Shown: positions 1,956-7,075, counted from the first letter of the stretch. The stretch: 64,000 nucleotides of DNA from Bacteroidota bacterium (GCA_049324295.1 JBMOKQ010000043.1:10746-74745), one strand, 5' to 3'. Program-made: numbers and translations. Notes: generated from the sequence alone by a model not told the origin.

Positions 1956-2234
1956 GTTGAGAGAACTAATAAAAGTTGACAGGTTATATAATTGCAATTT
2001 TTAAAGAAGTCAAAAAATAGTGTAAGCAAATTATTTTAAATCAGTCCCTGTGGACGGGCCTCATTGGGGTCGGTGTCAAGCGCAGCGAAGACAGATCAGA
2101 TCATCCGCCTCAGGCGGAGATCTGAGCAGAGGCCAATGCAGCCCAGTAACAGGGACGAGGCCCAGCGGCCATGAGCGATAAATGAATTTTAAACAGCTGG
2201 ATATTTGATTTTAATAGTACAATGCGTTAAAGGT

Positions 2235-2261: not shown

Positions 2262-3449
2262 TTGATAGAGAAACAACATAAAATAAAAGAAGAAGAAAAA
2301 GCGGTACTGGTAGGTCTTATTCAGAAAGAACAAACACAGGAACAGGTATATGAGTACCTCGATGAACTGGCATTTCTTGCTGAAACAGCGGGGGCACAAA
2401 CCGTGAGAAAATTCACCCAGAAACTGCCACATCCCGATAGCAGAACATTTGTTGGAAAAGGGAAACTGGAAGAGATAAAAGAATATGTATCCGGCAAAAA
2501 AATAGACCTGGTTATTTTCGATGATGAACTCACCGGATCACAGATTACCAATATTGAAAAAGAACTGGGTGTAAAAACTATTGACCGGAGCGATTTAATC
2601 CTCGACATATTTGCCCGCAGGGCCAGAACAGCCCAGGCCAAAGTGCAGGTAGAGCTTGCTCAGTACCAATACCTGTTACCAAGATTAAAAGGTATGTGGA
2701 AGCACCTGGAACGCCAGGGAGGTGGTATTGGTACAAGAGGCCCGGGTGAAACGGAGATTGAAACGGATCGCCGAATTGTAAAAGACAAAATATCGCTGCT
2801 CCGAAAAAGACTCGGAGAAATAGATAAACAGTCATTTACCCAGCGAAAAGAAAGGGGAGAATTGATTCGTGTATCGCTGGTGGGTTATACCAATGTAGGT
2901 AAAAGCACGCTGATGAATTTGCTGAGTAAGAGTGAAGTGTTTGCGGAAAATAAACTGTTTGCCACACTCGATACCACTACCAGGAAACTGGTGTTTGAAA
3001 ACACACCATTCCTGTTAAGCGACACTGTAGGTTTTATTCGCAAATTGCCACATCACCTGGTAGAAAGTTTTAAAAGCACATTGGATGAAGTGCGTGAAGC
3101 AGATATTCTATTGCATGTAGTAGATATATCGCATGCACAGTATGAAGACCAGATTGGTGTAGTGAACAAGACCCTGCAGGAGCTGAAAGCTTTTGAGAAA
3201 CCTATTCTTACCATCTTCAATAAAATGGATCTCTACGAAGAGAAAACATTTGATGAATGGCTGGAAGATGAAGTAAAACAGGAAATATTATTAGAGCTAC
3301 GCGAAAAATGGGAAAGAATAACAGAGCATAACTGTGTATTTGTATCTGCTCTTGAAAGAAAAAATATTGATGCATTGCGTGAACTGATACTGAATAAGGT
3401 ACGAGATATGTACCAGATACGATATCCTTACAAGACTGTTCATTTCTAA
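2262..3449 (+). CDS. hflX: Ribosome rescue GTPase HflX
   Basis: GPGETEIETDRR, G1 GYTNVGKS, LFATLDTT, DTVGF, NKMD. The ORF is open from 2205; TTG 2262 is the likelier start. Confidence 0.97.
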   Translation: MIEKQHKIKEEEKAVLVGLIQKEQTQEQVYEYLDELAFLAETAGAQTVRKFTQKLPHPDSRTFVGKGKLEEIKEYVSGKKIDLVIFDDELTGSQITNIEKELGVKTIDRSDLILDIFARRARTAQAKVQVELAQYQYLLPRLKGMWKHLERQGGGIGTRGPGETEIETDRRIVKDKISLLRKRLGEIDKQSFTQRKERGELIRVSLVGYTNVGKSTLMNLLSKSEVFAENKLFATLDTTTRKLVFENTPFLLSDTVGFIRKLPHHLVESFKSTLDEVREADILLHVVDISHAQYEDQIGVVNKTLQELKAFEKPILTIFNKMDLYEEKTFDEWLEDEVKQEILLELREKWERITEHNCVFVSALERKNIDALRELILNKVRDMYQIRYPYKTVHF

Positions 3450-3476: not shown

Positions 3477-4115
3477 TTAGAGTTCTTTCAGCCAGTGAAT
3501 ACTGTAAGTACGATGGCCGCCTGAAACGCCACGCATGTTAAAACCCAGGCTCCATCTTGTTTCCCAGGATTTTCCCATTCTCATACCTGCCCTGAGCACA
3601 GGATCGAAACTATCAAAAGGAACTTTGCCAACAGAAGTATGTACTTTGCTGTAGCTGTATTGATAACCGGCACCTACATAAATACCGAGTGAACGTCTTG
3701 AATCATCAGAAGCTGAGTGTAAACCGATATTCAGATCGGCCACAACTGGTATTTCAAAAGCAATATGCCCTCCTTTTTTACCTGTAATGGTATCGCGTTT
3801 GGCGCCGTCGAAATCAATGGAACGATAGCGGTTGGTAAAACTTATGCCTAACATCATAGGTGAGCCTACACTTACCGAACCCCATCTCCATTTAATCAGG
3901 TCTTTGCGAATGCTGTACACAATACCAATCTGTTTTACACGCATGCTGTATTGTGCATCAATAGCGGAACTATCTGTTCTTAACCTGGCCAGACCACTTA
4001 TATCAACTTTGCTGCCGAGTAAGCCAAAGCCCTGGTCAACCCCACGATTCTGTGAAAAACTACTGATATTGAATACCAATAAGAATATAACGAAACTAAG
4101 TAGCGATTTCTGCAT
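3477..4115 (-). CDS. Hypothetical exported/outer-membrane protein
   Basis: Signal peptide from ATG 4115 (MQKSLLSFVIFLL); beta-strand-rich with terminal aromatic residues; ORF open to 4142. Confidence 0.6.
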   Translation of the reverse strand: MQKSLLSFVIFLLVFNISSFSQNRGVDQGFGLLGSKVDISGLARLRTDSSAIDAQYSMRVKQIGIVYSIRKDLIKWRWGSVSVGSPMMLGISFTNRYRSIDFDGAKRDTITGKKGGHIAFEIPVVADLNIGLHSASDDSRRSLGIYVGAGYQYSYSKVHTSVGKVPFDSFDPVLRAGMRMGKSWETRWSLGFNMRGVSGGHRTYSIHWLKEL

Positions 4116-4174
4116 CTTTATGATTAGATAATGAATACACAAACCTAAGATATTGTAAGAAAAAAATATACTAA

Positions 4175-4504
4175 ATGTTTAAACCGGATAAGCAATGGCA
4201 TAAAATTGGCGAGACAGAAATGGAGTTTCAATGGCAAAATAACCAGATGTGTGTGATAGAAGTGGCCGGTAAAAAAATTACGCTGGCCAGGCACCAGGAA
4301 GGGTTGTATGCATTTGCCTATAAATGTCCGCATGCCAGTGGTATTATGGCCGATGGTTTTGTAGATGCGTTGGGGCAGGTGGTATGCCCATTACACCGGT
4401 ATCGTTTTAACATAAAAAATGGCCGGAACACGAGCGGCGAAGGCTATTACCTGAAAACCTATCCGCTGGAGCAGCGTACAGACGGTATTTACATCTCATT
4501 TTGA
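4175..4504 (+). CDS. Rieske (2Fe-2S) ferredoxin
   Basis: CPH...CPLH Rieske motifs, 109 aa. Confidence 0.92.
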   Translation: MFKPDKQWHKIGETEMEFQWQNNQMCVIEVAGKKITLARHQEGLYAFAYKCPHASGIMADGFVDALGQVVCPLHRYRFNIKNGRNTSGEGYYLKTYPLEQRTDGIYISF

Positions 4505-4577
4505 GCATTTTTTTCGATATAGATTTTGCCGGAATGCAATTTTCCCTATTTTTGCCACCCCGAAAGGGAAACGGTAT

Positions 4578-4653
4578 TCCCAAATAGCTCAGATGCTTGC
4601 CCGCCTAAGGAGGGGTTAGAGCATTCCGCCTCAGGCGGATTAATCAACGGGTC
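4578..4653 (+). pseudogene. Degenerate 5' part of tRNA-Asn with hairpin insertions (copy 1)
   Basis: TCCCAAATAGCTCAG..GGTTAGAGCAT..TTAATCA..GGGTC matches the tRNA at 4679; extra sequence in the D-loop and TCCGCCTCAGGCGGA in the anticodon arm. Confidence 0.75.
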
Positions 4654-4678
4654 AAAAACGAAAGAATACCAGACACAT

Positions 4679-4752
4679 TCCCAAATAGCTCAGTTGGTTA
4701 GAGCATCTGACTGTTAATCAGAGGGTCGCTGGTTCAAGTCCAGCTTTGGGAG
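4679..4752 (+). tRNA. tRNA-Asn (GTT)
   Basis: Cloverleaf: acceptor TCCCAAA/TTTGGGA, D stem GCTC/GAGC, anticodon stem TCTGA/TCAGA with loop CTGTTAA, T arm GCTGG-TTCAAGT-CCAGC; CCA not encoded. Confidence 0.97.
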
Positions 4753-4756
4753 CAGA

Positions 4757-4785
4757 GCCCTTCGCAAAAAAGCGGAGGGTTTTTT
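4757..4785 (+). terminator. Intrinsic terminator after tRNA-Asn
   Basis: GCCCTTCGC-A6-GCGGAGGGT followed by a T-tract. Confidence 0.85.
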
Positions 4786-4836
4786 GTTGGTCGAACAACC
4801 AGCACATACAGTAAAAAACGTAAATTCATCATCAGA

Positions 4837-5151
4837 ATGAGCCGGGTGAAACTACATAATAAGCAAGAACTCTTATCTGCTATCTCTACAAACAGAGAAG
4901 TGATAAAAGCCTATGGAGTAAATCGCCTGGGTATTTTTGGCTCATTCTCAAAAGGAACTCCAACAGCATCAAGTGATGTTGATTTGCTGGTAGATTTTAT
5001 ACCAGAGAAAAAAACATTCGACAATTTTATGGACCTGTCTTTCTTTTTGGAAGAACTATTTGGGAGAAAGGTAGAACTGGTAACTCCCCAGTCGTTAAGC
5101 AAATTTATTGGCCCTTACATTTTAAAAGAGGTAGAAAATGTCGGCCTCTAA
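4837..5151 (+). CDS. MNT-family nucleotidyltransferase antitoxin (MntA-like)
   Basis: GIFGSFSKG...SDVDLLVDF motif, LEELFGRKVELVT; overlaps the downstream HEPN gene. Confidence 0.92.
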   Translation: MSRVKLHNKQELLSAISTNREVIKAYGVNRLGIFGSFSKGTPTASSDVDLLVDFIPEKKTFDNFMDLSFFLEELFGRKVELVTPQSLSKFIGPYILKEVENVGL

Positions 5152-5468
5152 TCTAAAACTGGTTCGTCATATATTGATTGAGACGCGTTTTATATTACAA
5201 CACGTTGATGGTAGAAACAAAAGATGAAGTAATTCATGATGAAGTTTTATGTCGTGCAATAGTCAGAAGCATTGAAGTAATTGGAGAGGCCTCCAAAAAG
5301 ATCGATCAGGAATTTAAGTCCGATCATCCTCATATAGAGTGGAAAAAGATGGCTGGTACCCGTGATAAATTAATTCACGATTATTTTGGAATCGATTATG
5401 ATATTGTTTGGGATATCATTGAAAATAAGATACCAGACCTTGATCATTTTCTTAAACAACTGGTGTAG
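5138..5468 (+). pseudogene. HepT/DUF86 HEPN ribonuclease toxin, apparently split by a +1 frameshift
   Basis: ATG 5138 frame MSASNLKLVRHILIETRFILQHVDG stops at about 5226; the RSIEVIGEA...RDKLIHDYFG (RX4H) body is in another frame; joining needs a one-base deletion near 5210-5222. Confidence 0.75.
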
Positions 5469-5493
5469 TTGGCTTTCTTTTCATATCCAATTA

Positions 5494-5590
5494 CAAATAG
5501 CTCAGTTGCCTGTCTGCTGAAGGAAGGGTTAGAGCATTCCGCTTGAGGCGGATAAATCAGCGGGTTGCTGGTCAAGTCCAGCTTTCGGAG
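5494..5590 (+). pseudogene. Near full-length degenerate tRNA-Asn with hairpin insertions (copy 2)
   Basis: CAAATAGCTCAGTT[insert]GGTTAGAGCAT[TCCGCTTGAGGCGGA]TAAATCAGCGGGTTGCTGGTCAAGTCCAGCTTTCGGAG, followed by a decayed copy of the tRNA terminator. Confidence 0.8.
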
Positions 5591-5678
5591 CGAAACCCTT
5601 CACAGGAATGTGAAGTATTCTTTGTCAGTCAAGTGACTACATGTATTCGGAAGAAAATCAACTTAGATAAAAGAGGGG

Positions 5679-5859
5679 GTATCCTTCGTCGCAGATAATA
5701 ACCTGCGGTTATTAATGCTCCTCAGGATGACTAGAACACACACAAGAAACCAGTGGTGATGATTGGCATAGCCAATCATCACCACTAATAATTCCCCGCA
5801 TTAAATGGTCATCCTGAGGAGTATTCTGATCGCAGATCAGAAATTACGACGAAGGATAC
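5679..5859. repeat. Inverted pair of ~52-bp REP-like elements (5679-5731, 5808-5859) around a perfect 16-bp-stem palindrome (5752-5786)
   Basis: GTCATCCTGAGGAG...CGACGAAGGATAC in opposite orientations, each with an internal hairpin; AGTGGTGATGATTGGC-ATA-GCCAATCATCACCACT between them. Confidence 0.85.
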
Positions 5860-5923
5860 GCCTCAGCTTGTAACTACGCCTCGTTCGCAGTACGTTATGA
5901 TAGTTTTGTAATAAACTTATTTT

Positions 5924-6205
5924 ATGTACAAGCACGGCTATGTTTACATACTAACCAATGTCTCCAAAACCATGTTATATGTGGGCGTTACGTCGAACCT
6001 AACGCAGAGAATATGGCAGCATAAACAGAAAATTTACCCCAACTGTTTTACCACTAAATTTAATATTCATCTATTGGTTTACTGCGAAGTGCATACCAGC
6101 ATTGGAGATGCTATTAAAAGAGAAAAAGAAATTAAAGGGTGGAAACGAAGTAAAAAGAATGCGCTGATACAAACAAAGAACCCTAAGTGGGAGACTTTAC
6201 AATAG
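5924..6205 (+). CDS. Stand-alone GIY-YIG nuclease family protein
   Basis: GYVYILTN...LYVGVT, R-x-x-QH, AIKREKEIKGWKRSKK; 93 aa. Confidence 0.93.
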   Translation: MYKHGYVYILTNVSKTMLYVGVTSNLTQRIWQHKQKIYPNCFTTKFNIHLLVYCEVHTSIGDAIKREKEIKGWKRSKKNALIQTKNPKWETLQ

Positions 6206-6255
6206 CTATTCCGCCTTAGGCGGATTAATCAGAGGGTCGCTGGTTCAAGTCCAGC
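6201..6255 (+). pseudogene. 3' half of tRNA-Asn preceded by the 15-nt hairpin (copy 3)
   Basis: TCCGCCTTAGGCGGA (6210-6224), then a 31-nt exact match TTAATCAGAGGGTCGCTGGTTCAAGTCCAGC to the tRNA. Confidence 0.8.
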
Positions 6256-6274
6256 ACACAGCTCAAAGGTTGCT

Positions 6275-7075
6275 CTACACAGCCGCCAATATTCTGGCTG
6301 TAGAAGCATATTTAACCGGCTCTATTTCTCCGAGTATGCCCGGTTCTCCCATTTGAATACCTATTGCACCAATGCATGTAATATTTGCTTCCTGCAGGAG
6401 TGGCTGTTGCTGTAGTTTAATGATCATACTATGCGCAGGCATTTTTCTGCCCGACATCATCCAGTCACCAAAAACGGCAGTGCAGGGTAAGGGCAGTATT
6501 TGGTATTGGTTTTTGTATCCCTGTTCTGTGTAATGCAGATCTTCAATAACTCCCAGACTAATGATAAACCTGAAATAGGGTTTGTTCCAGGGTTGCGTAA
6601 AATTTAATCCGGGTGCCAACTCCCCAAAATGTACATGCATTTCAGCTTTCTCTCTCAACAATTGGGCGGTGGGTCTTTGTTTGAATACCGAATCAAAGAG
6701 CTGTTGTTTGGTAAATGCCAGTGAAGTAAGTGCATCTCTGTATTGCGAAAAAAGTATAGAACGCTGTCCGTGTGGATATACCGTATCTTGTTTTTGGATG
6801 GCTTTGCAAAACCTGTTCAATACAGGTGTCATGTTGTAATCGGCTAACTGCATAATATTGGGTAATGCAGATCGTATCATTTTGCCGGCATGCGCACAAC
6901 CTGCAAATTCTGCACTGTTGCGTCGCATAGCTGCATATTGCGGCTCGTTTTTAAAAGCTCCTTTTGCAATAAAGGGTTTGCGACGAAGAATTACTTTATC
7001 ACTGTTCCTCATTTTATAAGCCACCCATTCATCTAATTTGCCGGTGAATTGAATGGGACCATTAAGTATAGCCAT
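6275..7075 (-). CDS. Hypothetical protein
   Basis: 266-aa ORF with ATG start and normal composition; no recognisable catalytic motif. Confidence 0.7.
   Translation of the reverse strand: MAILNGPIQFTGKLDEWVAYKMRNSDKVILRRKPFIAKGAFKNEPQYAAMRRNSAEFAGCAHAGKMIRSALPNIMQLADYNMTPVLNRFCKAIQKQDTVYPHGQRSILFSQYRDALTSLAFTKQQLFDSVFKQRPTAQLLREKAEMHVHFGELAPGLNFTQPWNKPYFRFIISLGVIEDLHYTEQGYKNQYQILPLPCTAVFGDWMMSGRKMPAHSMIIKLQQQPLLQEANITCIGAIGIQMGEPGILGEIEPVKYASTARILAAV

Follow-up and report, generated by a model that had tools for sequence, protein, structure and literature searches.

The window analysed here, the whole 64,000-nt stretch C43:10746-74745 on a contig of a 3.65-Mb draft genome of Bacteroidota, probably carries an Ssn-type system, in which the gene of a single-domain GIY-YIG endonuclease is carried with its cognate GTC-tagged hairpin repeats. 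The partnership between Ssn nucleases and hairpin repeats was already described in 2025 (Chenal et al., Nat Commun 2025; PMC11893778). Beyond that work, we describe a two-tier arm that escapes the published repeat pattern, a head-to-head doublet of such arms with a conserved third hairpin, insertion evidence in the form of empty sites and a 15-nt flanking repeat, and copies adjacent to tRNA genes. The locus and its neighbourhood are laid out as follows, in window coordinates:

4175-4504: Rieske gene
4576-4660: degenerate tRNA-Asn copy ps1
4679-4753: true tRNA-Asn
4837-5468: MNT/HepT toxin-antitoxin pair
5489-5590: degenerate tRNA-Asn copy ps2
5536-5583, plus strand: left direct repeat, the tRNA-Asn 3' half of ps2, including the hairpin TCCGCTTGAGGCGGA
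5679-5859: composite palindrome (two arms and a central hairpin)
5679-5731, minus strand (its forward strand): left arm, a GTC-tagged two-tier hairpin, SRM-like or CGTC-REP-like
5752-5786, no strand assigned: central hairpin, the spacer of the doublet, with a perfect 16-bp stem (5752-5767 / 5771-5786) and a 3-nt loop
5808-5859, plus strand: right arm, the motif of the left arm, forward on plus, GTCATCCTGAGGAG...CGACGAAGGATAC
5860-5923, plus strand: conserved 64-nt spacer between the right arm and the GIY-YIG gene
5924-6205, plus strand: single-domain GIY-YIG nuclease gene, Ssn-like, 93 aa, with its stop codon at 6203-6205
6208-6255, plus strand: right direct repeat, a 15-nt hairpin TCCGCCTTAGGCGGA (6210-6224) followed by a copy of the tRNA-Asn 3' half

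The first-pass annotation of this DNA had described two inverted arms of ~52 nt, with inner hairpins that differ but compensate, and a perfect 16-bp stem between them. All are present at the positions given above. The inner hairpin reads TTCTGATC-GCA-GATCAGAA in the right arm and TAATAACC-GCA-GGTTATTA on the minus strand in the left arm (AATAACC-TGC-GGTTATT as listed for the plus strand). Folded as ssDNA, positions 5672-5866 reach -57.6 kcal/mol, against -17.9 +/- 3.0 kcal/mol for shuffled sequences (z -13.4; 0 of 200 shuffles as good). To quantify covariation, we aligned 19 arms from the present genome and its close relatives on one explicit structure. In this alignment 94.7% of the cells pair and both sides have changed in 11 of the 17 pairs, values matched by 0 of 500 shuffles and far from those of slid registers. 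Hence, the covariation claimed for the nested palindromes is real, and what is conserved and recognisable in an arm is its base, while the interior need only fold.

More precisely, the conserved part of the arm comprises, in order, the (C)GTC tag and a 5-bp stem (AYCCT/AGGRT), an invariant step of GA facing GA, a single Watson-Crick pair, another step of GA facing GA, and a short G-C/C-G/A-T stem. Beyond it lies the variable nested hairpin, mostly with a GNA loop. The pair isolated between the two G.A steps is G-C in 15 arms and C-G in 4. The GTC of the tag is invariant or nearly so across the 19 arms, with CGTC as the consensus and GGTC and AGTC in the window. In DNA hairpins, G.A steps and C-GNA-G loops are associated with very high stability. 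Copies of the central hairpin share the apex (T)TGGC-NNN-GCCA(A), and the substitutions in their lower stems compensate for each other. We considered whether CUGAGGAG...CGAA could be a hammerhead-like motif and dropped the idea, since stem II is separated from GAA by 2-3 bases too many, the G8 position is U in one copy, and a search of 4000-7000 against Rfam had no match at E <= 1. The literature search for the arm sequence returned no relevant paper. In some composites a second palindromic module (GGGAGTCCTTTGGA-type) is placed symmetrically in both arms, between CCTG and GAGGAG (L144:2820-2900, C38:about 117880-117950, C48:380-480), and it also occurs alone nearby.

The 64-nt spacer that follows the right arm is conserved in sequence in five homologous loci (L138, L141, L144, L227 and L236), with a TAnnTTTG box 15 nt 5' of the ATG. 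In the window, this promoter-like box is TAGTTTTG, at 5901-5908, which we take to be a Bacteroidetes -7 box from the known consensus TAnnTTTG. As a promoter element, it would put the transcription start downstream of the palindrome.

Ssn proteins are single-domain GIY-YIG proteins of ~94 aa (CDD cd10448, GIY-YIG_unchar_3), and their genes are flanked by oriented GTC-tagged hairpin repeats, known as NTS in Neisseria (CGTCATTCCCGCGMAVGCGGGAATCYRG) and more generally as SRM (PMC11893778). The 93-aa ORF of the window matches Pfam PF01541 (GIY-YIG; E 1.6e-15, residues 5-78) and has no further domain. Residues Y8, Y19, R29, H33 and E67 are invariant in 24 homologues. Among these, Y8, Y19 and E67 align with Y6, Y17 and E64 of the NTS-flanked homologue of locus L221, the residues equivalent to Y6, Y17 and E64 of N. 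meningitidis SsnA. The window protein is 47% identical to this homologue (E 7e-30) and 53% identical to that of L208 (E 5e-30), also NTS-flanked, at ~95% coverage. Overall, 3 of 80 homologue loci (L194, L208 and L221) have repeats at most one mismatch away from the NTS consensus, and in L208 and L221 these lie on both sides of the gene. A search of NCBIfam with the window protein gave nothing above the cut-off, and the nearest solved structures by sequence profile are the UPF0213 proteins BH0048 (PDB 1zg2, E 2e-8) and EF2693 (1ywl, E 2e-4). A homologue of the window protein is present in only 10 of 121 genomes of the genus.

The genome encodes other small GIY-YIG proteins. Paralogues 33-38% identical, some of them in tandem, lie directly behind tRNA-Met (C9:83921-84330 and C49:63580-65120) or tRNA-Asp (C52:600-1400), and behind each of them comes a partial copy of a tRNA with a new hairpin in the place of one stem. 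Another paralogue, 46% identical, is found at C55:31990-32700 amid other GTC-tagged hairpins (GTCATCTCGAGCGAAGCGCAGCGAAGTCGAGAGAT and relatives), one of which overlaps its stop codon.

The nearest homologues of the window protein (68-89% amino acid identity) occur in at least five genomic contexts. In all of them the same composite palindrome lies beside the gene, at the same 62-nt spacing wherever it is upstream. L138 lies behind a tRNA-Asn, has a layout like that of the window, and is 92.6% identical to it over 5555-6255. L141 is found between two convergent genes, with no tRNA, and its homology to the window covers exactly 5646-6204. In L144, the arms and the gene are kept within a polysaccharide gene cluster. 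The neighbouring genes of these three loci differ. Composites flank the gene on both sides in L227, and L236 has a single composite, downstream. The central and inner hairpins differ among all these copies by compensating changes. Around 4 of the 6 contexts of the clade of the window protein, the sequence examined contains no tRNA. L145 was removed from the independent contexts because it is the L144 locus.

The linkage extends to the wider family, represented by 80 metagenomic loci with homologues 46-58% identical to the window protein. A generalised hairpin pattern (GTC, any 5-mer, GA[GA], 8-57 nt, GA, reverse complement of the 5-mer) has 190 matches in these loci, against 1.4 in dinucleotide shuffles, and 56 of the 80 loci are positive. 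Matches number 3-4 per kb per strand up to 100 nt from the gene and 0.02-0.15 at distances of more than 800 nt, a fall of at least 30-fold. Their orientation is biased as well: forward copies prevail upstream and reverse copies just downstream, mostly as -> gene <-. When the stem 5-mer is mapped on a tree of 104 of the nucleases, it shows 32 changes, compared with 48.3 +/- 2.1 under shuffled labels; this clustering of stem types is only suggestive, since relatives share labels. The proposal that the nuclease and the repeats are cognate partners, made from the window alone, is supported by the linkage in homologues, by the accumulation of hairpins near the gene and by the clustering on the tree. 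The corresponding expectation that homologous GIY-YIG genes have such flanks agrees with what these loci show.

The element is not unique in its genome either. By relaxed matching, about 12 arms were found at seven loci: the window (C43), C48:590-760, C50:220-269, C97:258-306, C55:35146-35315, C38:about 117850-118065 and C57:9923-10120. Several copies lie at contig starts, so that seven is a lower bound. Both arms are present at five of the seven loci, all tag-inward around a central hairpin; in the window this layout spans a hairpin-bearing spacer of 76 nt, and it is repeated at C48, C55, C38 and C57. A GIY-YIG gene adjoins only the window copy, and the other six loci are gene-less. For the gene-less composite at C57, we sought an empty site in the relatives, where its flanks are not conserved and match only other repeats. 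The strict arm pattern has 0 matches across 200 other genomes of the family, which shows no more than a restriction of this precise sequence to the lineage. The exact arm frame GTCAYCCTGAGGAG...CGAAGGRT was also seen in many phyla (loci L018-L137), including Bradyrhizobium, Acidobacteriota, Armatimonadota, Patescibacteria and Dehalococcoidia, often as inverted pairs and with an inner stem that varies by compensating changes.

These gene-less copies leave room for a different account, in which the palindromes are an independent REP or MITE family that owes its spread to host recombination or to a different enzyme and merely shares permissive intergenic spots with small selfish GIY-YIG genes. 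The absence of a GIY-YIG gene beside 6 of the 7 composite loci fits this account, as does the finding of a small GIY-YIG gene within an 8-kb stretch at only 3 of 120 arm-pattern loci from other phyla. The genome also encodes two Y1-transposase homologues. However, one nuclease gene with many gene-less repeats is just what a system of the REP/RAYT kind predicts. An independent family is also at odds with the attachment of the composite to this GIY-YIG clade in at least five contexts at constant spacing when upstream, with the steep and oriented decay of hairpins away from the gene, and with hairpin types that follow the nuclease tree. As for the candidate enzymes, the only Y1_Tnp homologues of the genome (C47:234-566 and C55:18421-18765, IS200/RAYT-like) are each flanked by palindromes of their own, of the CCCCGGA / CCCCTCCGGGG type, unrelated to the arms of the window. 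This bears out the description of the block in the first-pass annotation as a unit without a RAYT, and we consider independent spread of the repeats unlikely.

The position of the composite, just upstream of the conserved promoter-like spacer, suggests another possibility, namely that it is a cis-acting operator, insulator or terminator of the GIY-YIG gene rather than a substrate linked to mobility. The apex of the central hairpin, TTGGC-NNN-GCCAA, does resemble a dyad binding site. Yet the composite lies downstream of the gene in L236, on both sides of it in L227, and away from any such gene at six loci of the genome. In L144, moreover, the neighbour on the upstream side is divergently oriented, which leaves no read-through to be stopped. 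A purely regulatory role is thus very unlikely.

Comparison of related genomes gives direct evidence that the doublet and the gene, about 0.55-0.62 kb, were inserted as a single block at different sites. The genes that flank the L144 copy adjoin in three relatives (G326, G329 and G290), where 78, 93 and 112 nt separate them, compared with 767 nt in L144. The insert of L144, 619 nt in length, is bounded by an exact 15-nt direct repeat, AAAACGAATTAATTA (L144:2659-2673 and 3293-3307), of which one relative has a single similar copy. A repeat of 15 nt is unusually long for a target duplication or a recombination footprint. For the L141 copy, the distance between the flanking genes is about 12 nt in G290 and 214 nt in the genome of the window. 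No direct repeat was found at the boundaries of the L141 insert, and the two 153-aa genes around it, considered as an inverted duplication, proved unrelated. The blocks of the window and of L138 are bounded by direct repeats of the tRNA-Asn 3' half, spaced by 672 and 671 nt respectively.

In the window, the two direct repeats are 86-87% identical (5536-5583 and 6208-6255), and the last 31 nt of the right one (6225-6255) are 100% identical to the 3' half of the tRNA-Asn (4714-4744). The stop codon of the nuclease does precede the 15-nt hairpin, as noted at first reading, but its placement within an 'AATAGCT tRNA remnant' is weak: the ORF ends in ...CAATAG in L144 too, with no tRNA nearby, which assigns CAATAG to the gene and lets the tRNA-derived part begin at the hairpin. 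Three degenerate tRNA-Asn copies (4576-4660, 5489-5590 and 6208-6255), with a D-loop insert and a hairpin that replaces the 5' anticodon stem, bracket both the MNT/HepT pair and the GIY-YIG block. In relatives, the Rieske gene and the tRNA-Asn form a simple locus, followed by unrelated DNA. Past the right repeat, the minus strand (6275-7075) encodes a 266-aa ORF without Pfam match, which has no match among 40 related genomes and an 88%-identical DNA copy at C81:35204-36010.

The 15-nt palindrome TCCGCC-NNN-GGCGGA has 13 copies in the genome, against ~0.07 expected. Its sites include window positions 2104-2118, 4625-4639 and 6210-6224, as well as C9:84293, C82:44207, C52:12241 and others. It caps degenerate tRNA copies as well as two unrelated GIY-YIG cassettes, at their 3' end, and is also found within an apparent 5S rRNA helix and an apparent SAM riboswitch stem.

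Although paralogues adjoin tRNA-Met (C9, C49) and tRNA-Asp (C52) with duplicated tRNA 3' parts, and the window copy and L138 lie behind tRNA-Asn copies, it is scarcely plausible that the protein is a free-standing homing endonuclease of tRNA genes with the palindromes as passengers, as 4 of 6 clade contexts are tRNA-free within the sequence examined, the 93-aa catalytic core has no DNA-binding domain outside it, and the palindromes accompany the gene into tRNA-free sites.

We therefore return to the Ssn-type reading, for which the biochemistry of the characterised enzymes offers a guide. In vitro, four Ssn enzymes bound their hairpin only as ssDNA and cut it a few nt 5' of the hairpin; the three bases before the palindrome matter for cutting and the C after it for binding, and the loop can be removed or extended (PMC11893778). 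Each arm of the window has a conserved recognition base and a nested hairpin that merely holds the two halves of the base together. The freedom of the nested hairpins to vary would follow from their position, the one that Chenal et al. found dispensable (PMC11893778). By analogy, the nuclease would bind the arm base on ssDNA and nick ~3 nt 5' of the tag, which predicts cuts near 5804 on the plus strand (right arm) and near 5735 on the minus strand (left arm). Two such nicks would bracket the central hairpin. The arms with this hairpin form a head-to-head, REPIN-like doublet, the unit that is also present without a gene at six other loci of the genome. The nicks could serve to restrict incoming ssDNA, to copy doublets or to move the block. 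In N. meningitidis, the Ssn enzyme lowers transformation by NTS-bearing DNA (PMC11893778).

A further step, which we put forward tentatively and hold to be rather doubtful, is that the Ssn-type nuclease might itself mobilise the GTC-tagged hairpin doublets and its own gene block, by nicking single strands at widely staggered positions, so that long target duplications of differing length remain (15 nt in L144; in the window and L138, 48-74 nt from the tRNA 3' half). If so, this would explain the half-duplicated, hairpin-capped tRNA arrays beside GIY-YIG genes, and the CGTC-tagged REPs would gain their missing transposase. The insertion of the block bears in any case on whether Ssn genes and CGTC-tagged REPs are, or were, transposon-like.

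Ssn enzymes are the first site-specific endonucleases restricted to ssDNA and are under development as tools, so that each pair of enzyme and hairpin is a potential new specificity. A recognition base split by a long variable nested hairpin is a natural counterpart of the experiments in which the loop was replaced. Since this class of arms is missed by the published pattern and has its base split by a nested hairpin, our results suggest that there are many more pairs of Ssn and repeats than have been counted.

The Ssn family is among the closest known systems. The window protein shares with it the size of a ~94-aa single-domain GIY-YIG protein and the catalytic Tyr/Tyr/Glu, and in both the gene is tied to oriented hairpins that bear a (C)GTC tag at their 5' end and have A-T as the first pair of the stem, repeats that are also scattered without a gene. 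The window arms differ in that they are of ~50 nt and two-tier, with a 5-bp base, tandem G.A steps and a nested variable hairpin. Both are upstream of the gene (64-245 nt), as a head-to-head doublet with a third hairpin, whereas the published layout is NTS-gene-NTS. Their copy number in the genome is low. The host belongs to Bacteroidota and some copies abut tRNA genes; the main text of PMC11893778 names neither tRNA nor Bacteroidetes. That study likened the NTS-gene-NTS layout to an insertion sequence and held mobility as a hypothesis only (PMC11893778), whereas insertion polymorphism is documented here.

The published identification of Ssn systems uses blastp to N. meningitidis SsnA (CAX49033.1; E < 1e-10, at least 75% coverage), cd10448 as top CDD hit and an SRM within 500 bp. 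The published SRM pattern has 0 matches in the window, which places the repeats of the window outside the operational definition; it has 4 matches in the genome, against 5-12 in shuffles, and occurs in 3 of the 80 homologue loci. The locus is thus probably best classed as an Ssn-type system whose repeat is a variant, rather than as a textbook member, because the SRM pattern misses the arms of the window and is not enriched in the genome, and because membership is argued through the NTS-flanked homologues, not through SsnA or cd10448.

The NTS/SRM hairpins of Ssn systems are the CGTC-tagged REPs of Di Nocera et al. (BMC Genomics 2013; PMC3733652), found in five phyla including Bacteroidetes, which 'apparently lack a dedicated transposase'. 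These REPs have an unpaired CGTC, TGTC or CCTC tag at one end and mostly form head-to-head dimers, often heterodimers, with spacers of 20-100 nt that are sometimes structured (PMC3733652). The window matches them in the terminal GTC tag, in the stem that starts with A-T and in the head-to-head dimer, with its spacer of 76 nt. Their stems are of 8-9 bp and their loops of 4-5 nt, whereas the arm of the window has a 5-bp base and a 'loop' that is a long structured insert, and no nuclease partner was proposed for them (PMC3733652).

The comparison with REPtrons and REPIN-RAYT systems (Nunvar 2010; Bertels and Rainey 2011, PMC3116915; Ton-Hoang 2012) is one of organisation: in both cases, a single nuclease gene lies beside inverted hairpin repeats, gene-less doublets are dispersed, and the distribution among related genomes is patchy. 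The enzyme of the window is of the GIY-YIG type instead of an HUH/Y1 tyrosine transposase, the tag is GTC instead of GTAG, and the predicted cuts would fall on opposite strands of the doublet. Free-standing GIY-YIG homing endonucleases (the Seg proteins of phage T4, I-TevI) share the catalytic domain and the behaviour of a selfish insertion, but they have a separate DNA-binding domain and cut double-stranded target genes, whereas the window protein is the catalytic core alone. Finally, the UPF0213 proteins BH0048 and EF2693 are likewise small single-domain GIY-YIG proteins; their similarity to the window protein is distant, and their entries show no repeats or activity.
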